Shown: one piece after another, positions 1,419 to 44,885 of the stretch
Position numbering within the stretch: the stretch's first letter is position 1
Layout of the letters: every line of letters begins with the position of its first letter
Made by a program: the position numbers and the translations under genes
Notes under the pieces: generated by a model
The model's database searches: none
The model's input: only the letters and a program-made list of their open reading frames with translations
What the model was told of the DNA's origin: nothing
Virus record (IMG/VR): IMGVR_UViG_2547132255_000002
DNA length: 46,124 nt
Origin: a virus
Lineage: Duplodnaviria; Heunggongvirae; Uroviricota; Caudoviricetes
Strand: one strand, 5' to 3'

Positions 1419-2489
1419 TTATTTGATTTCAATTTTGTCCCACTCCCTGCCTCTGTCATCACGATACTGTGATGCCATGGTGTCCGACTTATGCCCGAGA
1501 AGATGTTGAGCAAACTTATCGCTTATCTGCTTCTCATAGAGTCTTGCAGACAAACTGCGCAACTCGTGAAAGGTTGGCGGATCCCCTTCGAAGGAAAGAC
1601 CTGATGCTTTTCGTGCGCGCATAAAATACCTTGATACTGTGCCGGATGAAAGCGGTTCACGACGAGTAGATGCAATTATGGTTTCTCCGCCAAGAATCTC
1701 TTTGCATTTATCAAGTGTTTCCTTCATTGATATCCCGAGAGCATCAACATGCAATGCTGTTGGGATGGCAATTTTTACGCCTGTTTTGCTTTGCTCGACA
1801 TAAAGATATCCATCTACGATATCAGACCACTTCATTTCGCATAAATCACCAACTCGTTGCCCGGTAACAACAGCCAGTTCCATTGCAAGTCTTAGCCAAT
1901 ATGGTGATGATTCTGCTGCTTGATAAATTTTCAGGTATTCGTCAGCCGTAAGTCTTGATCTCCTTACCTCTGATTTTGCTGCGCGAGTGGCAGCGACCGG
2001 GTTTGTTGTTATATGGCCTTCAGCTATTGCCTCTCGGAATGCATCGCTCAGTGTTGATCTGATTAACTTGGCTGACGCAGCCTTGCCCTCGTCTATGTAT
2101 CCATTGAGCATTGCCGCAATTTCTTTTGTGGTGATGTCTTCAAGTGGAGCATCAGGCAGACCCCTCCTTATTGCTTTAATTTTGCTCATGTAATTTATGA
2201 GAGTCTTCTGCTTGATTCCTCTGCTGGCGAGGATTTTTTCGTAGCGATCAAGCCATGAATGTAACGTAACAGAATTATCACTGTTGATTCTCGCTGTCAG
2301 AGGCTTGTGTTTGTGTCCTGAAAATAACTCAATGTTGGCCTGTATAGCTTCAGTGATTGCGATTCGCCTGTCTCGGCCTAATCCAAACTCTTTACCCGTC
2401 CTTGGGTCCCTGTAGCAGTAATATCCATTGTTTCTTATATAAAGGTTAGGGGGTAAATCCCGGCGCTCATGACTTCGCCTTCTTCCCAT
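1419..2489 (-). CDS. int: Tyrosine integrase, lambda Int
   Basis: 356-aa product MGRRRSHERRDLPPNLYIRNNGYYCYRDPRTGKEF... matches recalled lambda Int over its full length. Confidence 0.97.
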   Translation of the reverse strand: MGRRRSHERRDLPPNLYIRNNGYYCYRDPRTGKEFGLGRDRRIAITEAIQANIELFSGHKHKPLTARINSDNSVTLHSWLDRYEKILASRGIKQKTLINYMSKIKAIRRGLPDAPLEDITTKEIAAMLNGYIDEGKAASAKLIRSTLSDAFREAIAEGHITTNPVAATRAAKSEVRRSRLTADEYLKIYQAAESSPYWLRLAMELAVVTGQRVGDLCEMKWSDIVDGYLYVEQSKTGVKIAIPTALHVDALGISMKETLDKCKEILGGETIIASTRREPLSSGTVSRYFMRARKASGLSFEGDPPTFHELRSLSARLYEKQISDKFAQHLLGHKSDTMASQYRDDRGREWDKIEIK

Positions 2490-2685
2490 TTCTGATCCTC
2501 TTCAAAAGGCTACCTGTTACTGGTCGATTTAAGTCAACCTTTACCGCTGATTCGTGGAACAGATACTCTCTTCCATCCTTAACCGGAGGAGGGAATATCC
2601 TGCACTCGCGTACCCATCGACGAACTGTTTCAAGGCTTCTTGGGCGTCGCTGGCGTGCGTTCCACTCCTGAAGTGTCAAGTACAT
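2467..2685 (-). CDS. xis: Excisionase, lambda Xis
   Basis: 72-aa product MYLTLQEWNARQRRPRSLETVRRWVRECRIFPPP... matches lambda Xis; overlaps int start as in lambda. Confidence 0.95.
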   Translation of the reverse strand: MYLTLQEWNARQRRPRSLETVRRWVRECRIFPPPVKDGREYLFHESAVKVDLNRPVTGSLLKRIRNGKKAKS

Positions 2686-2903
2686 CGCAAAGTCTCCGCA
2701 ATTACACGCAAGAAAAAACCGCCATCAGGCGGCTTGGTGTTCTTTCAGTTCTTCAATTCGAATATTGGTTACGTCTGCATGTGCTATCTGCGCCCACAGC
2801 ATCCAGTGGTCATAGCAGTCATTGATGTTCTCTGCTTCGATAACTCTGTTGAATGGTTCTCCATTCCATTCACCTGTGACTCGGAAGTGCATTTATCATC
2901 TCC

Positions 2904-2930
2904 ATAAAACAAAACTCGCCGTAGCGAGTT
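2904..2930 (-). terminator. Putative intrinsic terminator on the leftward (pL) transcript upstream of xis
   Basis: Hairpin AACTCGC-cgta-GCGAGTT followed on the minus strand by a U-run (TTTTGTTTTAT). Confidence 0.45.
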
Positions 2931-2964
2931 CAGATAAAAGAAATCCCCGCGAGTGCGAGGATTG

Positions 2965-3249
2965 TTATTCATTGCCGATATTCACCTTTATCGCGAACAC
3001 CTTTACCGGTTTATCACCGAAGTGGGGATGTGTGATTGTCTTGATTTCATATCCGTCATACGGGACGTCAATTCTGCGGCTGGAATCGTCGCGCTTCGGA
3101 TATCCCTTTGTGATAATCAGGCGGTCATACTCGCGGAACATAATTCGCTTATTCCAGTAGTCATTACACAGGCGATACTCTTCCGTTTTCTCTCCGCGAA
3201 TCATGGCATCGAAGTATTCACCTTTAACGGCAAGTTGCAGGTTAGCCAC
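2965..3249 (-). CDS. Hypothetical protein, possible ASCH/PUA-like fold
   Basis: 94-aa ORF; N-terminus LAVKGEYFDAMIRGEKTEEYR resembles the ASCH beta-barrel start motif; recalled similarity only. Confidence 0.45.
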   Translation of the reverse strand: MANLQLAVKGEYFDAMIRGEKTEEYRLCNDYWNKRIMFREYDRLIITKGYPKRDDSSRRIDVPYDGYEIKTITHPHFGDKPVKVFAIKVNIGNE

Positions 3250-5139: not shown

Positions 5140-5300
5140 ATCGCATTCAGATATTTGTTTTGATTCACGGACGGAAAAGAATTTCTCTTAAGCAATTCCT
5201 CTCTCGATGGCATTGGCTTTACGCGTTGGCGAATAATCATTTCTGCCGGAAGAATGCCGGGATTGTATGCAAGTCCTCTCATGGTAAATTCCTCAGTCAT
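5115..5300 (-). CDS. Hypothetical small protein
   Basis: Internal ATG ([10 protein letters not shown]...) of the 5115-5435 ORF placed right at the stop of the upstream gene; weak. Confidence 0.3.
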
Positions 5301-5589
5301 TACTGATAGCGCCATAGCGTGAGCGGTAATTACGCAGGCGCGGGTCGATATATTCAGGGAAGTGGGTATATGTGGCTTTGCGGAATGGTCGGATTGATGT
5401 CTGGTAAATTCGCTCGCGTTCTTCTTTCTCTGCAAGCCATATACAGTGGCGAGATTCCTTTTCCTCTTTCGTTTCCTGCGGTAGAGACATTATTCGATCG
5501 TAGTTTTTTCTGAATTTATCCAGCACCTCCGATACGGAATTGCCGGAACAGCGGCGCGCGTCATCCGCACCATACAGAGGCGCTGGCAT
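5293..5589 (-). CDS. Hypothetical protein
   Basis: 98-aa ORF in the leftward operon, 16 nt downstream of the exonuclease gene. Confidence 0.45.
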
Positions 5590-5605: not shown

Positions 5606-6154
5606 TTATTTAGCTAACTTTTTCCAGATCGCTGAAACGTATTTGGCTTGGTGAATGGCATCATCAAGCGCGTTGTGGCGAGTTCCTTTGAATGGCATAT
5701 CTCGCTTAGGGTCGAATCCTATTACCTTCCCAAGTTCGACGATTGTTCTTACGTCTCGGTCATTCCACCACTGCCACGGAACTGGCTGCCCTGTCAGCGA
5801 ATAACTGTTGCGGAGAATAACGCAGTCAAATGATGCTCCATTCCCCCAAACCTGAACGAATTTGTGGTTAGCGTTCTTTATGATGAATTCAGATAACCAT
5901 GAAAGAGCCGTTGAAAGCTCCTGAGTGTTGCTGGTTAGCGATTTTCTGGCTTCTTCACTCTGTTCCAGCCACCATAAAATCGTTGAAGCGTCAGGACGCG
6001 CCCGATATCGCATTGATGACTCAAGCGAGATATTTACCGAGAACTCTTCTCCTGTTTCTCCGGTATTCGGGTCAAAGAATACTGCCCCAATAGAAATAAC
6101 TGGCGCGTATGGCCCGTTGCCCATTGTTTCAAGGTCAACCATCAAGTGATTCAT
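5606..6154 (-). CDS. DEDDh-type 3'-5' exonuclease (DnaQ-like)
   Basis: 182 aa; Exo I motif MVDLETMG near the N-terminus and Exo III motif HNALDDA near the C-terminus; RBS aagga upstream. Confidence 0.7.
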   Translation of the reverse strand: MNHLMVDLETMGNGPYAPVISIGAVFFDPNTGETGEEFSVNISLESSMRYRARPDASTILWWLEQSEEARKSLTSNTQELSTALSWLSEFIIKNANHKFVQVWGNGASFDCVILRNSYSLTGQPVPWQWWNDRDVRTIVELGKVIGFDPKRDMPFKGTRHNALDDAIHQAKYVSAIWKKLAK

Positions 6155-6162
6155 GTAAGTCC

Positions 6163-6669
6163 TTAAATTGCGTGAATAGCGTGACGAGGGAAGGGGAGAG
6201 TTACTGGTGCAAAGGGTATATCGTCGTCAAAATCCATCGGAGGTTCGTTGTGTTGTGCTGGTGATGATTGCTGCTGTGGCTTCTGTGATTGCCTGCTGGC
6301 TGCTTGTTGTTTGCTGTCGCCAATGCCGCCAAGCATTTGCATCACGCCATTAATTCCGACATGAACCTCGGTTGTGTAACGGTCTTGTCCTGACTGGTCT
6401 TTCCACTTTCTGGTTCTCAGCATTCCCTCGAAATAAATCTGATCACCTTTTTTCACATACTGCCCCACGACCTCAGCCAGTTTCCCGGATACAGCAACAC
6501 GATGCCATTCAGTCAATTCCTTTTGCTCGCCAGTATTTTTATCTCGCCATTGTTCTGACGTGGCTATTGTCAGGTTAGCGAACGCTGTTCCTGATGGTGA
6601 GTATCGAACTTCCGGGTCTTGTCCTACCCGACCAAGGATAATCACCTTATTTACGCCTCTGCTTGCCAT
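6163..6669 (-). CDS. ssb: Single-stranded DNA-binding protein with C-terminal extension after DDDIPF
   Basis: [23 protein letters not shown]... OB-fold core closely matches E. coli SSB; acidic tip DFDDDIPF present but followed by 15 more codons. Confidence 0.9.
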
Positions 6670-7377
6670 TTATGCCGCCTGTTTTAGTTCGTTAACTCTG
6701 ATGTTCATTACCTGAACGCATTTAGCCTGCGCATCCTCATTGCCAGCCATTAATTGCCAGTCATGCTGATAACGTTCTATGAGTTTTTTCTTGTCAGTTT
6801 CTGTCGAAGCATAATCACTGAAGTCTTTCAGGATTTGTTCGCAGTCAACCGATGGAGATTTCTGGTTGGTATTTTCTGGTGATGGTTGATTGCCAGATGC
6901 TGGCATTGCCCATCCCGGCAGCGATGGAGGGGACCAGTAAAATCCTGTTCCATCTTTCAGTTTTGCCCTGTGCCATCCCTGCTTTTTATCGAGAGATGTT
7001 TGTGCGAAACCTTCCTCAAGGTTATACAGATACCGACCGATTCCCCACTGAACGGCAGCACGCTTCATTGCACCGGAACGACCACCTTTGACGGCTTCTA
7101 CCTGCGTGTTTTCAGCAGCATCCCATTTGGTTACCCATTCGGAATCAATCTTGATTGATATGCCGCATTCAACTCCGCCGTTGTTGGGAATATCGCGGTA
7201 TTCATTGCGCCATCCTGCTTTGCCGCAAACATCGTCCAGGCGTTTCATGATTGCCCTGTTCGTGACATAAGCCAGCACCATAGCCCACACCTTGCCATCG
7301 CGTGTTTTACCGCTTTGCTGTATTCGCCATTCGATATCTTCAGGGCTGAATGGCTCATCGAATTTGTTCAAATCCAT
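6670..7377 (-). CDS. Rad52-like single-strand annealing protein (Sak-type recombinase)
   Basis: 235-aa ORF directly upstream of ssb and exonuclease; strong RBS (gaggtg); family assignment from recalled Rad52/22-type prophage proteins. Confidence 0.6.
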   Translation of the reverse strand: MDLNKFDEPFSPEDIEWRIQQSGKTRDGKVWAMVLAYVTNRAIMKRLDDVCGKAGWRNEYRDIPNNGGVECGISIKIDSEWVTKWDAAENTQVEAVKGGRSGAMKRAAVQWGIGRYLYNLEEGFAQTSLDKKQGWHRAKLKDGTGFYWSPPSLPGWAMPASGNQPSPENTNQKSPSVDCEQILKDFSDYASTETDKKKLIERYQHDWQLMAGNEDAQAKCVQVMNIRVNELKQAA

Positions 7378-7476
7378 AATTCACCTCAGAATGGACACGG
7401 CCCAAGGAAATAACGCTGATTTAATACTTCGACTCGGGACAAATTAAGGCATACCCGCATTCCTTCGCGGTCGCCA

Positions 7477-7635
7477 TTATGGCGATACCAGAGAGCTTTC
7501 TGCGTGTACATGCGCCTCTGTAACTTGCTCTCCTTCACTGTGGTTGCAAGTGACATGAATATCTCCTTCGTTGCCGATTAATTCTTTCATCTGACGAATG
7601 AATTCTTCGTCTGACCAGTTATCTGTAAAACTCAT
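7477..7635 (-). CDS. Small protein translationally coupled to cIII (Kil-equivalent position)
   Basis: 52-aa ORF MSFTDNWSDEEFIRQMKEL...; its ATG overlaps the cIII stop (ATGA). Confidence 0.4.
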   Translation of the reverse strand: MSFTDNWSDEEFIRQMKELIGNEGDIHVTCNHSEGEQVTEAHVHAESSLVSP

Positions 7636-7802
7636 GGACGGCCTTGTTGTTTCAAAATATCCCAAAGCTTTTCGAGCAAGCTTTTCATTCTTGGTTGTTT
7701 AAAGTCTGCTCCGGTTAAAATATTTTTTCGTGAATGCTGTACCGATAAAATCGGGTTGAAAGGGCGAACCGATGCCACCCCTGCAATAGCGAACTGTTGC
7801 AT
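7632..7802 (-). CDS. cIII: cIII-like inhibitor of FtsH
   Basis: 56-aa MQQFAIAGVAS...MKSLLEKLWDILKQQGRP resembles lambda cIII (MQYAIAG...SLLERITRKLRDGWKRLIDILNQPG); GGAG RBS. Confidence 0.65.
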   Translation of the reverse strand: MQQFAIAGVASVRPFNPILSVQHSRKNILTGADFKQPRMKSLLEKLWDILKQQGRP

Positions 7803-7860
7803 AGGATGCTCCTTCTGTTTGATTGCATAACGAAAACGCCTCGAGTGAAGCGTTATTGGT

Positions 7861-7890
7861 ATGCATATAAAAAGGCCCTCACACTGGAGG
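7861..7890 (-). terminator. Putative intrinsic terminator in the pL operon (tL1-like)
   Basis: On minus strand: GCCCTC-cagtgt-GAGGGC followed by CTTTTTAT. Confidence 0.5.
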
Positions 7891-8026
7891 GCAAAGAAGA
7901 TTTCCAATAATCAGAACAAGTCGGCTCCTGTTTGGTTACGAGCGACATTGCTCCGTGTATTCACTCGTTGGAATGAATACACAGTGCAGTGTTTATTCTG
8001 TTGTTTATGCCAAAAATAAAGGACGA

Positions 8027-8650
8027 TTATGCGACCTCGGAAGGAAGTCCAATCATCTTATTCAAATCTTCTACCCGTAAAGCAGGAAGTGCTGTACTTG
8101 CTTTATCTGCTTCTTTTGGTAGCAACTCTTTGCTTTCAGGCCAAACTTCAATAAGTCGCTTAACTGTTGTGACTGAGTTCAAAGCAGCCCATACATTTGA
8201 TTCGATATCCTTTTTCTTGGCTTCAAGTTTTTGTTGCAATGCGCAGATTTCATCAAACCTTTTTGTTATTTCGTGTTCTGCGCTAAACATGCATTTATCT
8301 TTGGTCGGAGTAGGGAGCAATATATCTTCGCCGTTGCCGTCTTTCCCATATGAATACCAGCCAACCCTTCTGCCAGATACAGTCAGATAAATTGAAGTTG
8401 AACGGGCATCGCATGAGTAAAATGAACATCCCAGCTTTTCAAGTTCTTCGCTTATAGCCATTAACTTGGATGATAACTGATCCACTTCCTCAGTTTTCTT
8501 TTTACCGCCAAACGCAACAACTCTGGCGTCAAGTGCAAGCTGGTTCTTTAACTTTGTTACTTCTTCAAGCTCAGTGAAAACCCCAGATTTAATTAAAGCG
8601 TTACGAGCGATTTTCTCTTTCATTCTCGTAGTTAAGCGGATTGATGACAT
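8027..8650 (-). CDS. Hypothetical protein in the N-cIII moron slot
   Basis: 207 aa from ATG at 8650 (MSSIRLTTRMKEK...) with RBS GAGAGGA; no family recognised. Confidence 0.6.
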   Translation of the reverse strand: MSSIRLTTRMKEKIARNALIKSGVFTELEEVTKLKNQLALDARVVAFGGKKKTEEVDQLSSKLMAISEELEKLGCSFYSCDARSTSIYLTVSGRRVGWYSYGKDGNGEDILLPTPTKDKCMFSAEHEITKRFDEICALQQKLEAKKKDIESNVWAALNSVTTVKRLIEVWPESKELLPKEADKASTALPALRVEDLNKMIGLPSEVA

Positions 8651-8661
8651 ATTAATTCCTC

Positions 8662-8988
8662 TCAAATAAGTGGTTTGCTGCCTAATTTCATTTTCTGGCG
8701 ACCAACACAAGTCACACCCATTTCACTGCGTGGCTTGCTGTACCATGTGCGCTGATTCTTGCGCTCAATACGTTGCAGGTTGCTTTCAATCTGTTCGTGG
8801 TATTCAGCCAGCACCGTAAGGTCTATCGGATTCAGTGCGCTTTCTACTCGTGATTTCGGTTTGCGATTCAGCGAGAGAATAGGGCGGTTAACTGGTTTTG
8901 CGCTTACCCCAACCAACAGGGGATTTGCTGCTTTCCATTGAGCCTGTTTCTCTGCGCGACGTTCGCGGCGGCGTGTTTGTGCATCCAT
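8662..8988 (-). CDS. N: Antitermination protein N (lambda type)
   Basis: MDAQTRRRERRAEKQAQWKAANPLLVGVSAKPVNRPILSLNRKPKSRVESALNPIDLTVLAEYH... matches lambda N including the ARM. Confidence 0.95.
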   Translation of the reverse strand: MDAQTRRRERRAEKQAQWKAANPLLVGVSAKPVNRPILSLNRKPKSRVESALNPIDLTVLAEYHEQIESNLQRIERKNQRTWYSKPRSEMGVTCVGRQKMKLGSKPLI

Positions 8989-9145
8989 CTGGATTCTCCT
9001 GTCAGTTAGCTTTGGTTGTGTGTGGGAGTCGTAGTCCTGAACGAAAACACCCCGCAATGGCACATTGGCAGCTAATCCGGATTCGCACTTCCGGCCAATG
9101 CTTCGTTTCGTATCACACACACCAAAGCCTTCTGCTTTGAATGCT

Positions 9146-9176
9146 GCCCTTCTTCAGGGCTTAATTTTTAAGAGCC
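9146..9176 (-). promoter_or_regulatory. nutL (boxB hairpin plus boxA)
   Basis: Minus strand reads boxA GGCTCTTA (lambda CGCTCTTA), AAAATTAA spacer, boxB GCCCTGAAGAAGGGC, identical to recalled lambda nutL. Confidence 0.85.
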
Positions 9177-9208
9177 TCACCTTCATGGTGGTCAGTGCGT
9201 CCTGCTGA

Positions 9209-9244
9209 TGGCTAAATAGTACGATTTGTACTTTATCGAGTCAA
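9209..9244 (-). promoter_or_regulatory. pL promoter (-35 TTGACT, 17-bp spacer, -10 TACTAT)
   Basis: Minus strand TTGACT-N17-TACTAT-ttagcc-ATCAGCAGGACGCACTGACC; the transcribed leader matches lambda pL. Confidence 0.75.
9218..9232. promoter_or_regulatory. Operator-like 15-bp palindrome in oL
   Basis: AGTACGATTTGTACT; 13 of 15 bp shared with a site in oR (10097-10111, reverse complement AATACGATATGTACT). Confidence 0.55.
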
Positions 9245-9369
9245 TACAAAATGTTCTAAATATAACTACTTTTTTATAACGCTTTGTATTTAATGGGTTT
9301 ATATTTTGGAAAAAGAAAACCCGACGCTAAGGTCGGGTTATTGTTGTGTGTTTTAGAGTGGTGAGGCTG

Positions 9370-13898: not shown

Positions 13899-14071
13899 GG
13901 CGACAGCGACGAAGTATCACCGACATCATCTGCGAAAACTGCAAATACCTTCCAACGAAACGCTCCAGAAATAAACGCAAGCCAATCCCAAAAGAATCTG
14001 ACGTAAAAACCTTCAACTACACGGCTCACCTGTGGGATATCCGGTGGCTAAGACATCGTGCGAGGAAATGA
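13896..14071 (+). CDS. Small nin-region protein (NinD-like?)
   Basis: 58-aa [30 protein letters not shown]...; start overlaps ninB stop and stop overlaps methylase start. Confidence 0.5.
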
Positions 14072-15018
14072 CGATGACTGCGTATTACAACGAAATAGAT
14101 CCGTATGCAGCGCAATGGCTGCGTAACTTAATTGACGCTGGAGAAATTGCCCCCGGTTATGTAGATGAAAGGAGTATTGAAGATGTCACTCCAGGTGATT
14201 TGCGAGGATTTACCCAGCACCACTTTTTTGCAGGAATCGGAGTTTGGAGCTATGCACTTAGAAAAGCAGGATGGCCAGACAACAAGAGTATCTGGACAGG
14301 AAGTTGCCCATGCCAACCTTTCAGCTCGGCAGGCAAAGGAAAAGGGGTTGATGACGAGCGGCACTTATGGCCGGCATTCTTCTGGCTTATTGAAAAATGC
14401 AATCCTGGCATCGTTATTGGCGAACAGGTTGCAAGCGCAGACGGCCTCGCTTGGCTCGACCTTGTACAAACTGACTTGGAAGGTGCGAACTACACCTCTG
14501 CAGGTACCGATATTTGCGCTGCGGGCTTCGGTTCTCCGCACATTAGGCAGCGATTGTATTGGGTGGCCTACTCCAACGACAAATATCAACTTTCAGCCAG
14601 AGACGCGCAGGGGAATTCAGAACCTATCTGGATGCGTGAGACTAGCGGGATGGCAAACTCCTTTAGCGAACGATGCAACAGGTTCAACGCATTGCTACAG
14701 CGGAAAAGACAAGAGCGGAACCCCAAGAATCTGCTTGAAACTTCCCGGGACGGTGAAGCTATGTACCCATTACCGGTTAACGGCTTCTGGAGAGATGCAG
14801 ACTGGCTTTACTGTAGAGATGAAAAATATCGTCCAGTTAGACCCGGCTCATTCCCGATGGTTAATGGCATTGCCAAAAGCTTGGGACGAGGCAAGTCCAC
14901 ACTGGGAAGAATGGCAAAGCGCAATCAAGATCAGCGAATTATTGGATATGGAAACGCAATCAATGCAGAAGTAGCAACGGCATTCGTGAAAGTTTGTATG
15001 GAGGTTGTTAATGCTTAG
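14068..15018 (+). CDS. DNA (cytosine-5)-methyltransferase, orphan
   Basis: Motif [10 protein letters not shown], catalytic PCQ in [16 protein letters not shown], motif VI-like [13 protein letters not shown]; no adjacent restriction endonuclease. Confidence 0.85.
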
Positions 15019-31609: not shown

Positions 31610-33563
<1,954 letters not shown>

Positions 33564-33978
33564 GTACAAAGACCTTGCAGGTCAGGCGCGTTACCAGAGT
33601 CTGGCAGCAGCAGAGGCAACGGGTGGATTAGGCTCTACAGCAACAGGAAACCAGTTAGCAGCAATCGCACCTACACTCGGTCAAAACTGGCTGTCAGGTC
33701 AGATGAACAACTACAACAATCTGGCAAACATTGGCCTTGGTGCTCTTACAGGTCAGGCAAATGCCGGACAGACCTATGCAAACAATGCCAGTCAGTTGTA
33801 TCAACAGCAGGCAGCAGCAGTCGCAGCAAATGCCAACCGACCATCTACAGGTCAGAAATTGATTGGTGGAATAGGTTCTGGTGCTGCTATTGGTGGCAGT
33901 GTTGGTGGTCCATGGGGAGCAGCAATTGGTGCAGGTGTAGGTGCTCTCGGCTCTCTTCTTTACTGATGGAGGTGAACA

Positions 33979-35361
33979 GTGGCAACTTGGCAACAGAGCA
34001 TCAACTCCGGTGGTTTTCTGGCTGGAATTGGTGCGCAAAATGAGAATGCGCCAAAGGCGAGTGATGTAAATGAGACACTGGCTTACATTCGTCAGAATAA
34101 TGAGGATGCCAGGCTTGGTCGCAACAATATCGGTCTGCAGGCTCTGCAGGGAATAACAAGCACAATGCAAGGATTGCAGCAATATGATCAGCAGAAGCAA
34201 GAGGCAGCATTCAGAAAGGATTATGCTTCTGCTATTCAATCAGGTGATCGACAGCAGGTTCGAGATCTGATGACCAAATATCCTGGTCAATTAGAGAAGA
34301 TTCAGTCTGGTATGAAGTGGGCAGACGAAGACCAGCGCAATTCTATCGGCACCTTAGCGGCTGGCGCACGACTTGCAGCCTCGTCTCCAGAAGCAATGCA
34401 ATCATGGCTGCAAAACAACGCCAAGGAACTGACTCGCGTCGGTGTTGACCCTAATAACGTTGCTCAGATGTATCAGCAGAATCCTTCAGGATTTGGTGAG
34501 TTTGTTGATCACCTTGGAATGTCAGCGCTTGGTCCTAATGATTATTTCAATGTTCAGGACAAGATGGCTGGTCGTGAGATTGACCGAGGCAGGCTGGCAG
34601 AGACAATCCGCAGCAATCAGGCTGGCGAGGCACTTCAGGCGAGAGGGCAAAACCTTTCCTATCAGTCAGCAATGACTGGACACGGACTTGCAGCAGAAAG
34701 ACTGGCACTTGATAAGCAGAAATTCGGTTTTGAAGTACAACAGGCACAAAAGAAGGCCGATGAACTTATTAATGCTGCGCCAAAACTATCCGTGAACATG
34801 GAAAAGGCTATAGAAAAATCAGCAGGTGATGCGGCAGCTAGTCGTAATGCTGCCGATTCAATGACAACGCTTGCTGACACGCTGGAGAAGGAGAAGCCAA
34901 CTCCTGGTTTGTTCGGTAACGCTGAAAATATGTTCACTAAGCTTACGGGGCAAGATAACTACCTCCGAGATATGCGGATTAGATTCAACCAACTAGCCAA
35001 TGCGCAGGCAACCAAGCTTCTCCCTCCCGGCCCTGCATCAGATAAGGATATTGAGTTTGCAAGGAAAGGCATTCCAAGCGAAACGGATAATCCAATGGTC
35101 ATGGCTCGATGGTTAAGGGGTATGGCAAAAATGGAAAGTAATAACGCGAAGTTCAACGAGTTTAGGTCAGAGTGGATGAGTGCAAATGGCAGCCCAGGAC
35201 AATCTGATCGCAACCGAAACATCATGGGGATGGATGTTAAGAAGGGTGAATCATTGAACTCTGCGGCAAAACGTTTTCTTTCCTCAAGTTATGGCGATAG
35301 CCAACCTCAACAGCAATTGTCCGATGACGAATTAATTAGCAAATATCTCGGAGGGCAGTAA
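33979..35361 (+). CDS. Ejection protein (P22 gp20-like)
   Basis: 460 aa from GTG with RBS GGAGGT; synteny and size. Confidence 0.65.
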
Positions 35362-40737: not shown

Positions 40738-43683
40738 ATGACAGACATTACAGCCAATGTTGTGGTAAGCATGCCTTCGCAACTCTTCACTATGGCGCGT
40801 TCTTTTAAAGCCGTAGCCAATGGCAAAATTTATATCGGTAAAATTGACACTGACCCGGTAAATCCTGAAAACCAGATTCAGGTTTATGTGGAGAACGAAG
40901 ACGGTTCTCACATTCCTGTTTCGCAACCAATAATGATTAACGCTGCTGGATATCCGGTATATAACGGACAGATTGCCAAATTCGTAACCGTGCAAGGCCA
41001 TTCTATGGCTGTTTATGATGCGTATGGTACACAGCAGTTCTATTTTCCTAATGTGCTGAAGTATGATCCTGATCAGTTACGGCAGCAATTAGAAGACCCA
41101 GATGGAGCGAATAAATACCCAAAACTTCAGATAGCAAGATGGAGAGACAGTTATGATGTAAGAGGTTGGGGGGCTATTGGTGATGGTGTTCATGATGATA
41201 CATCAGCTCTATCAGAATTACTTTCTGTTGCAACAGGTGGTGAAAAGATAGATGGGCGAGGGCTTACTTTTAAAGTATCAACTCTTCCAGATGTCAGTCG
41301 ATTTAAAAATGCTCGTTTTTTATTTGAGAGAATACCGGGTCAGCCTCTTTTTTATGCTTCTGAAGATTTTATCCAGGGAGAGTTATTTAAAATTACAGAT
41401 ACACCGTGGTACAACGCCTGGACGCAGGATAAAACGTTTGTATATGACAATGTCATCTATGCGCCTTTTATGGCTGGAGACCGCCATGGTGTAAATAACC
41501 TCCATGTTGCATGGGTTCGCTCAGGAGATGACGGGAAGACCTGGACAACGCCGGAATGGCTTACAGATTTACATGAAAACTATCCCACAGTTAACTATCA
41601 CTGCATGAGTATGGGGGTTGTCAGAAATCGCCTTTTTGCTGTAATTGAGACGCGGACCGTGAGCGGAAATAAACTGCAGGTTGCAGAGTTGTGGGATCGC
41701 CCAATGAGTCGCAGCCTTCGCGTTTATGGTGGTATAACGAAAGCAGCAAATCAGCAAGTCGCTTATATTCGCATTACTGATCACGGATTATTTGCTGGTG
41801 ATTTTGTCAACTTCTCAAACTCTGGTGTTACAGGTGTTACCGGGAATATGACGGTGACTACTGTTATTGATAAAAATACTTTTACAGTTACGACGCAAAA
41901 TACCCAGGATGTGGATCAGAATAACGAGGGTAGATACTGGAGTTTTGGTACATCATTTCACTCGTCACCATGGAGAAAAACCAGTCTTGGAACTATTCCT
42001 TCTTTTGTTGACGGAAGCACTCCTGTTACTGAGATTCATAGTTTTGCGACGATTAGCGATAACAGTTTTGCTGTTGGCTACCATAATGGTGATATTGATC
42101 CACGTGAGCTTGGGATACTCTATTTCTCTGATGCTTTCGGTTCTCCTGGTAGCTTTGTTCGCAGACGCATACCTGCAGAATATGAGGCGAATGCATCTGA
42201 GCCATGTGTAAAATATTATGATGGCATTCTGTATCTGACGACCAGGGGGACATTAAGTACTCAACCCGGTAGTTCATTGCACAGAAGCTCTGATTTAGGT
42301 ACATCATGGAATTCTCTTCGCTTCCCAAATAATGTTCATCACTCAAACCTTCCTTTTGCCAAAGTTGGCGATGAGCTGATTATTTTTGGCAGTGAGCGCG
42401 CATTTGGTGAGTGGGAAGGAGGAGAACCTGATAACCGTTATGCAGGAAATTATCCAAGAACATTTATGACCAGAGTTAACGTCAATGAGTGGAGTCTGGA
42501 TAATGTAGAGTGGGTTAATGTTACTGATCAGATTTATCAGGGCGGAATAGTTAACTCTGCGGTTGGTGTTGGTTCAGTTTGTATCAAAGACAACTGGCTG
42601 TACTACATTTTCGGTGGGGAAGACTTTCTAAACCCATGGAGCATAGGGGATAACAACAGAAAATATCCTTATGTTCACGATGGTCACCCGGCTGATTTGT
42701 ATTGTTTCAGGGTGAAAATTAAACAGGAAGAATTTGTTTCAAGGGATTTTGTCTACGGAGCCACTCCTAACAGAACGCTTCCTACTTTTATGTCGACGTC
42801 AGGCGTGAGGACGGTTCCTGTACCCGTTGATTTCACAGATGATGTTGCCGTCCAGTCACTGACTGTCCATGCAGGTACATCAGGACAAGTTCGCGCGGAA
42901 GTCAAACTTGAGGGTAATTACGCCATTATTGCGAAGAAAGTACCGTCTGATGATGTTACCGCTCAGAGATTAATCGTTAGCGGAGGTGAAACAACGTCTT
43001 CAGCAGATGGTGCAATGATAACGTTGCATGGTTCCGGAAGCAGTACTCCACGTCGCGCGGTATATAACGCACTCGAACATCTTTTTGAGAACGGAGATGT
43101 TAAACCTTATCTTGATAATGTAAATGCTCTTGGTGGTCCGGGAAACAGGTTCTCGACAGTTTATCTTGGCTCCAATCCTGTGGTTACCAGTGACGGAACA
43201 TTAAAGACAGAGCCGGTCTCTCCTGACGAAGCATTGCTGGATGCCTGGGGTGACGTCAGGTATATCGCTTATAAATGGCTGAACGCTGTCGCTATAAAGG
43301 GGGAAGAAGGGGCGAGGATACATCATGGTGTAATCGCGCAGCAACTTCGTGATGTTCTTATTTCTCACGGACTCATGGAAGAAGAAAGCACAACATGCCG
43401 CTATGCCTTTCTTTGCTATGACGATTATCCCGCAGTATATGATGACGTCATTACTGGCCAAAGGGAAATGCCGCTGACTGATAATGACGGGAGCATCATT
43501 GTTGATGAGGATGATAATCCAGTGATGGTAATGGAAGACATCATTGAGCGCGTTGAAATAACGCCAGCAGGATCTAGATGGGGGGTCAGACCTGATCTCT
43601 TATTCTATATCGAGGCAGCATGGCAGCGCAGAGAAATAGAAAGAATAAAAGCTAGGTTAGACTTAATAGAAGGGAAGCACTAA
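40738..43683 (+). CDS. Tailspike: P22 gp9-like head-binding domain, endosialidase-like receptor domain, C-terminal intramolecular chaperone
   Basis: N-terminal ~115 aa ([43 protein letters not shown]...) match P22 gp9; two Asp-boxes SGDDGKTW and SSDLGTSW; ~160-aa C-terminal tail after a TSD site. Confidence 0.8.
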
Positions 43684-44408: not shown

Positions 44409-44885
44409 TTAACTAAACATCGCAGTAATCGAGGCACTCGCCAGAGAGTGAAAATGAACGTTAAACCCGACCATCGCGCCGCTGGCACCTTCATCGACAT
44501 CAATACGTTCTACATCCAGCGCGTGAACGGTAAAAATGTAGCGATGGGTTTCGCCTTTCGGCGGCGCTGCGCCATCGTACCCGGTTTTACCAAAGTCGGT
44601 ACGCGTCTGCAAAACGCCGTCTGGCATAGCTACCAGACCAGAGCCAAACCCTTGCGGTAATACGCGGGTATCAGCGGGTAAATTAACAACTACCCAGTGC
44701 CACCAGCCGGAGCCGGTTGGCGCATCCGGGTCATAGCAGGTGACAACAAAACTTTTCGTTCCCGCAGGAACATCATCCCACGCCAGATGCGGTGAAATAT
44801 TATCGCCATCGTAACCCATGCCGTTAAAGACATGACGATGCGGCAGCTTATCGCCATCGCGCAGATCGTTACTGATGAGTTTCAT
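44409..44885 (-). CDS. ybhB: Host PEBP-family protein YbhB
   Basis: 158-aa ORF adjacent to attR on the bio side of lambda attB; PEBP-like motifs (DPDAP, HRY). Confidence 0.75.
   Translation of the reverse strand: MKLISNDLRDGDKLPHRHVFNGMGYDGDNISPHLAWDDVPAGTKSFVVTCYDPDAPTGSGWWHWVVVNLPADTRVLPQGFGSGLVAMPDGVLQTRTDFGKTGYDGAAPPKGETHRYIFTVHALDVERIDVDEGASGAMVGFNVHFHSLASASITAMFS

Follow-up and report, generated by a model that had tools for sequence, protein, structure and literature searches.

A stand-alone Nmad5-family gene next to N in a CUS-3/P22-like prophage

The open reading frame at positions 8027-8650 of the window (the whole stretch of 46,124 nt that was analysed, IMG/VR record IMGVR_UViG_2547132255_000002) is confirmed as a real gene. 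It is almost certainly a functional gene whose product is a stand-alone Nmad5-family protein, carried by a CUS-3/P22-like prophage in its leftward early operon as a promoterless single-gene cassette immediately after N. The gene is already catalogued in Pfam, PHROGs, RefSeq and several named phages, and as a finding it is ordinary. An earlier note, made from the sequence alone, had presented it as a moron without a recognisable domain, and this reading is partly supported. The features on which the analysis rests are as follows.

7632-7802, minus strand: cIII gene (MQQFAIAG...), the next gene downstream, from ORF and translation; annotated in HK542, AR_0017 and mEp235
7826-7854, minus strand: second terminator-like hairpin, stem 7854-7835, just upstream of cIII, from a scan
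7865-7892, minus strand: intrinsic-terminator-like hairpin followed by a T-run, from the scan
7953-7984, minus strand: RNA hairpin with a 14-bp stem and a 4-nt loop, lacking a T-run, from RNA folding (-24.9 kcal/mol)
8023-8686, no strand assigned: cassette without a counterpart in lambda, from blastn against lambda
8027-8650, minus strand: Nmad5-family gene, 207 aa plus stop, from ORF, Pfam, PHROG, RefSeq copy and dN/dS
8657-8663, minus strand: Shine-Dalgarno sequence GAGAGGA, 6 nt 5′ of the ATG, read from the sequence
8662-8988, minus strand: N antiterminator gene of the lambda type, from its translation and 94% nt identity to lambda N; annotated as N in HK542
9146-9160, minus strand: nutL boxB hairpin GCCCTGAAGAAGGGC, from a hairpin scan; lambda nutL aligns there
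9216-9244, minus strand: pL promoter-like site TTGACT-17-TACTAT, from a consensus scan; it equals the pL annotated in HK542

The gene and its protein family

The coding region runs on the minus strand from an ATG at 8650-8648 to a TAA stop codon at 8029-8027, and its Shine-Dalgarno sequence shares bases with the N stop codon (TGA, 8664-8662). The well-initiated 207-aa ORF with ribosome binding site GAGAGGA and ATG at 8650, as described in the earlier note, is thus seen in full in the sequence. The ATG at 8650 is preferred over the longer TTG-8710 start of the Kapi1 record, because all homologues share the N-terminus MSS/MTS-(I/V)-RLT. That the ORF arose by chance is discounted on the grounds of the Pfam match given below, of intact copies in 81 of 83 lambdoid loci, and of a dN/dS of 0.28 (69 alleles of the gene), which indicates purifying selection.

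The product, in which no domain had been recognised, consists of a full-length Nmad5 domain. In a Pfam profile search residues 4-203 align to positions 1-206 of the 206-position PF18757 profile (239.7 bits, cut-off 27, E=4e-71), and PHROG 1965 is matched with E=1e-81. A 100% identical copy is found in E. coli AR_0017 (WP_000095087.1), with the RefSeq name "Nmad5 family putative nucleotide modification protein". Proteins with 93-100% identity occupy the same place behind N, i.e., HK542 gp33, mEp235 gp37, Kapi1_018 and WP_000095087.1. The family comprises 2306 cluster representatives at 50% identity, the best 150 of which are 180-230 aa in length. PF18757 is the sole domain given for 120 Nmad5 matches; all 120 are single-domain, and no domain fusion offers a clue to the role of the family. 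The phages that carry it infect Escherichia, Pseudomonas, Vibrio, Bordetella and other hosts, and strictly virulent phages are among them (N4-like, YuA-like, Dhillonvirus). Presence is patchy, with 211 of 5426 complete E. coli genomes (3.9%) having the gene. The literature on PF18757, phrog_1965, the RefSeq accession, mEp235 and PhiR12 contained nothing on function, and papers that use the Nmad5 name do so without biochemistry. The Nmad families were reportedly defined by Iyer et al. in 2013 (NAR). It should be noted that the "NMAD" domain listed by DefensePredictor in validated or predicted defence systems is Nmad2 (PF18753), not Nmad5, and has no relevance here.

Conserved residues were taken as those with at least 90% conservation in 148 sequences of 25-60% identity. 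The window protein keeps R5, I14, A18, R43, G48, G93, T162, L166 and W170-P171-E172, as well as E175, L176, P178, P189, L196, N197 and G201. The polar residues R5, R43, T162, E172, E175 and N197 could form an active site equally as well as a binding surface. Conservation is concentrated in a C-terminal module, whose first part is T-x-K-(K/R)-L-L-x-x-W-P-E-x-x-E-L-L-P; a linker of variable sequence and constant length (9 residues) follows, and then a second part, L-P-A-h-x-V-x-D-L-N-x-h-I-G-L-P, near the C-terminus. This motif may resemble clamp-binding peptides.

The AlphaFold model of the product (pLDDT 85-92) is mostly helical. No relatives of the model were found in the PDB, and the predicted fold appears to resemble no known enzyme fold; in BFVD the sole significant structural matches are other Nmad5 proteins (TM 0.74, probability 1.0). 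The product is basic, with a pI of 8.2 (family median 7.65), and its hydropathy (maximum Kyte-Doolittle 0.61 in a 19-residue window, GRAVY -0.34, no transmembrane segment) points to a soluble protein. A DNA mimic of the strongly acidic Ocr/ArdA type was rejected on the pI, and a membrane or exclusion protein of the SieB or RexB type on the hydropathy.

Position in the leftward early operon

N lies immediately upstream in the same transcription unit, with a gap of 11 nt from its stop codon to the Nmad5 start. No promoter-like site was detected between pL (9244-9216) and the ATG at 8650 in a consensus scan, which a weak internal promoter would escape. Once the phage infects or is induced, the cassette would thus be expressed as one transcription unit with N from pL. 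Because of this, and because the first terminator-like sites are downstream of the gene, the protein is probably made very early in the lytic cycle and repressed in the lysogen. Translation would initiate from the gene's own Shine-Dalgarno sequence overlapping the N stop.

In blastn comparisons the cassette replaces lambda 34,081-35,061, which holds ral, orf28 and sieB. Its left flank, 7865-8022 (158 bp), corresponds to lambda 33,923-34,080 in the ral-ea10 spacer with 96.8% identity, and its right flank, 8687-9210, to the lambda N-nutL region with 94.3% identity. The G+C content of the gene is lower than that of the window (40.7% vs 47.1%). It is absent from lambda and present in only some lambdoid phages, and the view of the earlier note that it is accessory is supported; the N-cIII region in which it lies is variable. 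It is the sole plausible gene between N and cIII (ATG at 7802), as had also been claimed. The absence of rexAB between cI and N was likewise verified: the interval between the end of cI (9370) and the pL -35 (9244) holds solely a bidirectional terminator-like hairpin at 9318-9339. Farther down the pL operon are genes for a Rad52-type annealase, an SSB, an Rv2179c-like exonuclease and Abc2.

About 80 lambdoid loci of IMG/VR, as well as HK542, mEp235, Kapi1 and PhiR12, show the same order, with the gene directly after one of the N or Nun type. The recombination modules with which it is combined are of four or more kinds, the N alleles differ as well, and AR_0017 has its identical copy in a different mosaic background. 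Five related loci have a Ral homologue (PHROG 1055) between N and the Nmad5 gene, and Ea10 or other cassettes on the far side of the latter. The idea that the gene takes the slot of ral and sieB holds for the replacement of ral, orf28 and sieB in this phage. However, Ral and Ea10 are neighbours of Nmad5 rather than alternatives to it, because they are found next to it in some relatives.

Two structures on the 3′ side of the gene had been pointed out previously. The terminator, placed at 7861-7890, was recovered with a stem at 7892-7875 and a T-run extending to 7865; it is the first terminator-like site downstream of pL in a consensus scan, which a Rho-dependent terminator would escape. The same scan gave the lambda orthologues of the terminator-like hairpins at 33,952-33,931 (first) and 33,512-33,493 (second). 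Presumably the window terminators represent the lambda tL2 cluster, reportedly described by Luk & Szybalski in 1983. The perfect 9-bp hairpin, placed at 7955-7982, is longer when modeled as RNA, with a 14-bp stem at 7953-7984. The 228-nt spacer 3′ of the gene has a folding z of -5.45 relative to shuffled sequences, and an Rfam search gave sub-threshold chance matches at most. The 7953-7984 hairpin lies within the lambda-like block of 96.8% identity and is nearly invariant in 60+ related loci; with the block so little varied, covariation support for the hairpin is not obtainable. Of 80 related loci, 24 have further cassettes that separate the Nmad5 gene from this block. Both hairpin and terminator are backbone DNA and not the gene's own, because the block is 96.8% identical to the lambda ral-ea10 spacer.

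Possible roles of the protein

Nmad5 genes of unrelated phages are repeatedly found near genes of replication and nucleotide metabolism. In N4-like phages they adjoin genes for ThyA/ThyX, primase and a gp42-like putative nuclease. Elsewhere the neighbours are a 5-hmdU kinase and a dU hydroxymethylase in YuA and MW2, an RNase_T exonuclease and a PurZ cluster (PurZ/MazZ/DatZ-like) in one context, and an Rv2179c-like exonuclease in another; replication protein O, helicase-primase and PolA are further neighbours. In Aeromonas-type prophages the gene is near Dam, Dcm or MT-A70 methylases. The family owes its name to such nucleotide and base-modification gene neighbours. Genes for base modification or nucleotide pathways are present in roughly half of the non-lambdoid contexts that were sampled, which leaves some room for a catalytic or cofactor role. 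In Dhillonvirus-like phages the gene is in the head module, away from replication genes, a location that does not suit a link to DNA metabolism. That Nmad5 accompanies phage DNA methylases as a general rule, such as in a role against modification-dependent restriction, was rejected, since mEp235 and Kapi1 carry it without a methylase.

Our preferred reading, which is tentative and may well be wrong, is that Nmad5 is an autonomous early binding protein that serves DNA metabolism or host takeover. It would act without a phage-encoded partner enzyme, because it occurs with varied recombination modules and N alleles, in AR_0017 in another background, and in mEp235 and Kapi1, in which no methylase or nucleotide-modification gene was found. 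From genomic context and conservation we infer that it would work by binding rather than by catalysis, with the nearly invariant C-terminal module as the likely surface. This is suggested by the conservation of that module on both sides of its linker, and by genetics of the Dhillonvirus nmad5, where the K296E substitution lets the phage escape Tmn defence but deletion of the gene is without effect on the Tmn outcome (PMC11846954). A link to DNA metabolism is suggested by the replication and nucleotide genes that are neighbours in unrelated phages, together with the annealase, SSB, exonuclease and Abc2 of the window operon. The protein, probably soluble, mildly basic and mostly helical, would act at the interface of the host cell with phage DNA replication and nucleotide metabolism, in a host-takeover or replication-support role that is dispensable but advantageous; it would not modify bases in this phage.

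A counter-defence protein, first made after infection and neutralising or evading host immunity as Ral does, with no role in replication, is a somewhat unlikely alternative that nevertheless accounts for several observations. The gene occupies the accessory slot that has ral in lambda, and among the occupants of this slot in relatives are Ral, unknown cassettes and a protein that PHROG labels "superinfection exclusion". The sporadic distribution in E. coli, the low G+C and the different positions of Nmad5 in different phage groups are in keeping with it, as are the dispensability of the Dhillonvirus gene and the escape of its point mutant from Tmn (PMC11846954). However, the wild-type gene gives no protection from Tmn and is, if anything, linked to being sensed (PMC11846954). 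The product matches no known defence or anti-defence family: there was no similarity to Ral, SieB or RexAB in Pfam, PHROGs, NCBIfam and PADLOC, and no PADLOC-DB family was matched at E<=1. It is not acidic, which argues against DNA mimicry, and in some phages its gene co-occurs with ral instead of replacing it. The repeated replication and nucleotide neighbourhood in unrelated phages would be left unexplained.

It is unlikely that the protein takes part in modifying nucleotides or DNA bases, either as an enzyme or as an obligatory cofactor, together with host enzymes or with the C5-cytosine methylase of the phage. The family does have a 5-hmdU DNA kinase and a dU hydroxymethylase as neighbours, is given as part of the thymidine-hypermodification cassette of SN1 (PMC9476957), and is also found near the PurZ/MazZ/DatZ-like cluster and near Dam, Dcm and MT-A70; conserved polar residues are present as well. 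These pathways (T hypermodification, Z base, methylation) are, however, chemically unrelated, which argues against a specific chemistry. The C5-cytosine methylase of the window, at 14032-15018, belongs to the rightward nin region, at a distance of 5.4 kb. No nucleotide- or base-modification enzymes were found in the pL operon of the window and no hypermodification enzymes anywhere in the window, and the modeled fold is like no known enzyme. mEp235 and Kapi1 are devoid of modification genes, as noted above, and none was found in the examined 9.5-kb early region of HK542.

A more far-reaching view is one that we consider decidedly unlikely, namely that Nmad5 proteins are phage effectors of a new class, made very early and with a fold that the PDB lacks, whose invariant C-terminal module docks onto a Proteobacteria-wide component and so redirects or protects DNA synthesis. 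Candidates for docking would be a replisome protein (sliding clamp or SSB), a nuclease or an immune sensor. If true, this would explain why Nmad5 travels with every kind of modification and replication module, why a cloned homologue is toxic, and why a charge reversal in the module, and not deletion of the gene, changes the outcome with Tmn.

Least probable is the proposal of the earlier note, a moron active in the lysogen that keeps out superinfecting phages or shields the host in the manner of sieB or rexAB: the lambda slot does hold sieB, rexAB is missing here, and an accessory gene with 3′ hairpins, patchy presence and deviant G+C has some features of a moron, but the gene showed no promoter-like site of its own in the consensus scan, has no terminator of its own, lies 11 nt past N in the repressed pL operon next to a hairpin and terminator that belong to the lambda-like backbone, encodes a soluble product without a PADLOC match or the transmembrane segment expected of a SieB-like protein, and is of a family that many strictly virulent phages carry, for which a function in lysogeny makes no sense.

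As a sequence feature the gene changes nothing; its value is that of a pointer, as a candidate for experiment. The family numbers about 2300 sequence clusters, and the phages concerned, both temperate and virulent, infect many Proteobacteria. Its fold is neither solved nor recognisable, and Tmn is the one defence system to which genetics connects it. The lambdoid gene appears to be placed for production together with N at the onset of infection. mEp235, HK542 and Kapi1 are easy to engineer and can be propagated on laboratory E. coli, which probably makes such lambdoid carriers the most convenient systems for the study of Nmad5 function. For the lambdoid copies, "nucleotide modification protein" is a name to be treated with caution.

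Comparison with known systems

The Nmad5 domain is also present in Dhillonvirus SM_S22 CDS6, designated "nmad5" (E=1e-55), and K296 of that protein aligns with R165 of the window protein within the conserved TTVK(K/R)L..WPE motif. However, CDS6 has 334 aa, with an 80-residue N-terminal extension, compared with 207 aa here; its C-terminal half alone is alignable by BLAST, with 31% identity, and its gene, from a virulent siphovirus, lies within the module of head genes and on the opposite strand. The Dhillonvirus homologue is dispensable to the phage and was toxic to clone (PMC11846954).

YuA gp15, MW2 gp16 and SN1_019 have the same domain at full length (YuA gp15 matches PF18757 with E=4e-56) and, as in the window, an early or DNA-metabolism location. 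Identity to the window protein is about 30-44% over part of the protein. These three are flanked by a 5-hmdU DNA kinase, a dU hydroxymethylase and PolA, which the window phage does not have.

The ral, orf28, sieB and ea10 genes of lambda are in the same interval between the same flanks, and they too are small independent leftward cassettes of the pL operon, but there is no sequence or family relationship between them and Nmad5. SieB has its own expression in lysogens. The closest counterparts are HK542 gp33, mEp235 gp37, Kapi1_018 and WP_000095087.1, which represent the same gene as that of the window, with no substantive difference.

Identity and distribution of the Nmad5 gene

The open reading frame between N and cIII was described in the earlier note as an unknown gene without a recognised domain. 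This no longer holds. The product matches Pfam family PF18757, Nmad5 ("nucleotide modification associated domain 5"), from end to end (239.7 bits, E=4e-71), and the E. coli AR_0017 gene, which is 100% identical, is named "Nmad5 family putative nucleotide modification protein" in RefSeq. The product also matches PHROG 1965 (E=1e-81), whose function is unassigned in PHROG, and no match was found in PADLOC or NCBIfam. That the gene is real and belongs to Nmad5 is settled. When the window sequence was re-read, the note's description of the ORF, the Shine-Dalgarno sequence, the downstream structures and the absence of rexAB proved accurate. The features, from the window sequence unless stated, are:

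ATG 8650 to TAA 8029-8027, minus: Nmad5-family ORF, 207 aa
8663-8657, minus: Shine-Dalgarno GAGAGGA, 6 nt before the Nmad5 ATG, overlapping the N stop
8664-8662, minus: N stop codon TGA
8662-8988, minus: lambda-type N gene, upstream of Nmad5 (94% nt identity to lambda)
ATG 7802, minus: cIII, next gene downstream (by translation)

Only 126 bp separate the cI end (9370) from the pL -35 (9244), and rexAB is not present there.

This is a catalogued gene and not a rare one: 211 of the 5426 complete E. coli genomes searched have a copy at ≥95% nt identity, and phages HK542, HK244, mEp235, Kapi1, the PhiR12 series and many Stx1a phages are also carriers; phage copies are mostly annotated "hypothetical protein". 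Full-length lambdoid copies are intact in 81 of 83 cases, and the gene is under purifying selection, since dN/dS is 0.28 across 69 alleles. Stx2a phages (Stx2_716, 2400-3022, and ~48 other records) have a copy that lacks the first 33 codons and has unrelated upstream sequence with no obvious start codon; it is probably a remnant.

When 1.84 billion cluster representatives were searched with a profile (E≤1e-3), 2306 members emerged, the best 150 of which are essentially all 180-230 aa long. In a second search PF18757 was the sole domain listed for each match; thus there are no domain fusions. Members come from phages of Escherichia, Salmonella, Klebsiella, Vibrio, Pseudomonas, Bordetella, Edwardsiella and an alphaproteobacterium.

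The cassette, its expression and the downstream spacer

Comparison of the window with lambda was used to set the limits of the inserted segment. Window 8687-9210 aligns to lambda N through nutL, 7865-8022 is 96.8% identical to lambda 33,923-34,080 (the ral-ea10 spacer), and 7774-7864 aligns to the start region of lambda cIII. With lambda matches on both flanks, segment 8023-8686, i.e., the ORF and ~36 nt upstream, is thus a clean cassette. It takes the place of the lambda ral-orf28-sieB segment, and ea10 is missing from the window.

A consensus scan of the window found no promoter-like site between pL (9244-9216) and the Nmad5 ATG; the gene thus rides in the pL operon without a promoter of its own. 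The first intrinsic-terminator-like sites downstream of pL come after the gene. Nmad5 is translated from the Shine-Dalgarno that overlaps the N stop codon, and we infer, with good support, that it is co-expressed with N from pL in the first moments of lytic growth and silent in the lysogen.

The Nmad5-cIII spacer (7803-8026) folds far better than shuffled sequences (z = -5.45) and has three structures:

7953-7984: 14-bp RNA hairpin, -24.9 kcal/mol, without a T-run, containing the 9-bp stem of the earlier note (RNA folding)
stem 7892-7875, T-run to 7865: intrinsic-terminator-like hairpin (scan)
7854-7835: second terminator-like hairpin (scan)

All three sit in lambda-like backbone, and the same scan run on lambda places the counterparts of the terminator-like sites at 33,952-33,931 and 33,512-33,493. 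Luk and Szybalski reportedly mapped the lambda tL2 cluster "between bet and ral", and we take these sites and their counterparts to lie at the place of that cluster. The 14-bp hairpin is common to the lambda ral-ea10 spacer and nearly invariant in >60 lambdoid loci, from which no covariation could be obtained; it may be an RNA processing or stability site.

Genomic neighbourhoods

Eighty IMG/VR lambdoid loci carry the gene at 93-100% protein identity. In 53 of these the hairpin/terminator block directly follows the Nmad5 stop codon, and in 24 other cassettes are inserted between the two after a 30-45 nt linker. An N-type gene always precedes Nmad5, usually lambda-type, sometimes of another type or Nun-like. 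In some loci N and Nmad5 are separated by Ral (PHROG 1055) or by small unknown ORFs; Ral is a neighbour of Nmad5 and not an alternative to it. Other loci have Ea10, a PHROG-1510 "superinfection exclusion" protein, a 340-aa coiled-coil protein or several unknowns between Nmad5 and cIII. Recombination modules downstream are of at least four kinds: Rad52-type with SSB (as in the window), Erf, RecT and an ATPase type. With such varied neighbours and recombination modules, Nmad5 is therefore a module of its own, tied to no particular phage partner.

In mEp235 (6980-7626) and ~8 IMG/VR loci (cluster 37), an HK620-type N is followed by a Nun-like gene and then by Nmad5; the antitermination or exclusion genes that accompany the cassette therefore differ. 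The window module (5606-6154, 6163-6669, 6670-7377 and 5293-5589) consists of a Rad52-type annealase, SSB, an Rv2179c-like 3'-5' exonuclease and Abc2. The same exonuclease family recurs beside Nmad5 in one of the following unrelated phages:

N4-like phages: thymidylate synthase (ThyA/ThyX), Nmad5, gp42-like putative PD-(D/E)XK nuclease (sub-threshold Pfam match), primase
Pam3-like phage (L098/L099, 6633-10789): Nmad5 adjoins an RNase_T exonuclease and a PurZ/MazZ/DatZ-like cluster
55-kb phage contig L100: Nmad5 directly beside the Rv2179c-like exonuclease
Vibrio phage Athena1: Nmad5 just ahead of replication protein O
eiAU: Nmad5 after helicase-primase
phage locus L107: Nmad5 before PolA
Aeromonas-type prophages: Dam/Dcm or MT-A70 methylases and SSB share the early-left operon with Nmad5
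Dhillonvirus-like phages: Nmad5 on the opposite strand, within the head module

Genes of early DNA replication and of nucleotide metabolism recur in these contexts. The Pam3-like cluster (PurZ, adenylosuccinate-synthetase-like; dGTP diphosphohydrolase; dATP-dGTP pyrophosphohydrolase; HD) is a signature of 2-aminoadenine (Z-base) genomes.

Protein conservation, possible functions and the prophage background

In an alignment of 148 family sequences, most of which share 25-35% identity with the query, conserved positions cluster in the last 45 residues. A first block, T162-x-K-(K/R)-L-L-x-x-W-P-E-x-x-E-L-L-P178, is joined by a linker of variable sequence and constant length (9 residues) to a second, L188-P-A-h-x-V-x-D-L-N197-x-h-I-G-L-P203, behind which the protein ends in a tail of 3-6 residues. 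Only N197 is invariant; conservation also reaches ≥90% at R5, I14, A18, R43, G48 and G93. AlphaFold2 with these sequences gave pLDDT 91.9 and pTM 0.82 (pLDDT 85.3 in an earlier run with 29 sequences), and the model has:

residues 8-72: three long helices
residues 86-100: beta-hairpin
between the beta-hairpin and the next helix: irregular segment
residues 127-158: long helix
after 158: two short helices with the WPE motif
residues 184-189: low-confidence linker
residues 193-200: final helix

The predicted fold has no match in the PDB and no pointer to a known enzyme class. The protein is mildly basic (pI 8.2) and, with a maximum hydropathy of 0.61, predicted to be soluble.

Genetic data come from Dhillonvirus phages, where escape from the Tmn defence maps to a single Nmad5 substitution, K296E in SM_S22 or K216E in SMA8; reversion restores sensitivity, deletion of Nmad5 gives no escape, and the wild-type gene could not be cloned, being apparently toxic (PMC11846954). 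In our alignment K296 of SM_S22 CDS6 corresponds to R165 of the window protein, where a basic residue is conserved (113 of the 148 sequences have K or R). As it lies within TTVK(K/R)L..WPE, this C-terminal module matters in vivo.

Tentatively, Nmad5 may be an autonomous, non-catalytic early protein that supports phage DNA replication/metabolism or host takeover, the C-terminal module binding a host or nucleic-acid target. We lean to this reading because no phage partner is needed, replication and nucleotide genes are neighbours in unrelated phages, the fold is not enzyme-like, and the genetics of the Dhillonvirus homologue point the same way. That Nmad5 is purely a counter-defence factor is somewhat unlikely. 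The DefensePredictor "NMAD" domain was considered as a defence link and set aside, as it is Nmad2. A true modification enzyme or cofactor is unlikely. Nmad5 is listed within the thymidine-hypermodification cassette of phage SN1 (PMC9476957), and modification pathways lie near it in about half of cases and are chemically unrelated; the lambdoid carriers mEp235 and Kapi1 lack methylase and modification genes altogether, and none was found in the 9.5-kb early region examined in HK542. The only DNA-modification gene of the window, a C5-cytosine DNA methylase (14032-15018), is in the rightward nin region, unlinked to Nmad5. The lysogen-expressed exclusion moron proposed in the earlier note is highly improbable, as the gene has no promoter of its own, its terminator is borrowed from the lambda-like backbone, the protein appears soluble and the family is abundant in strictly virulent phages.

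The gene is thus ordinary and already catalogued; its family is known, though uncharacterised, and so is the variable region that holds it. The family itself is large and probably early-expressed, with a fold unmatched in the PDB, and lambdoid carriers offer an easy experimental entry.

The prophage lies between ybhC and a ybhB-like PEBP gene, beside a tyrosine integrase (1-1284, 1419-2489, 44409-44885), which is the classical lambda attB neighbourhood. Despite this insertion site the virion module is P22/CUS-3-like. An IS21-family element within the late/virion region (31676-33477, minus; istA 32455-33477, istB 31676-32458) may have inactivated the prophage. The tailspike (40738-43683) is a K1-type endosialidase, which implies a K1-capsulated host, and its P22 head-binding domain and C-terminal S74 chaperone complete the same make-up as that of the CUS-3 tailspike.
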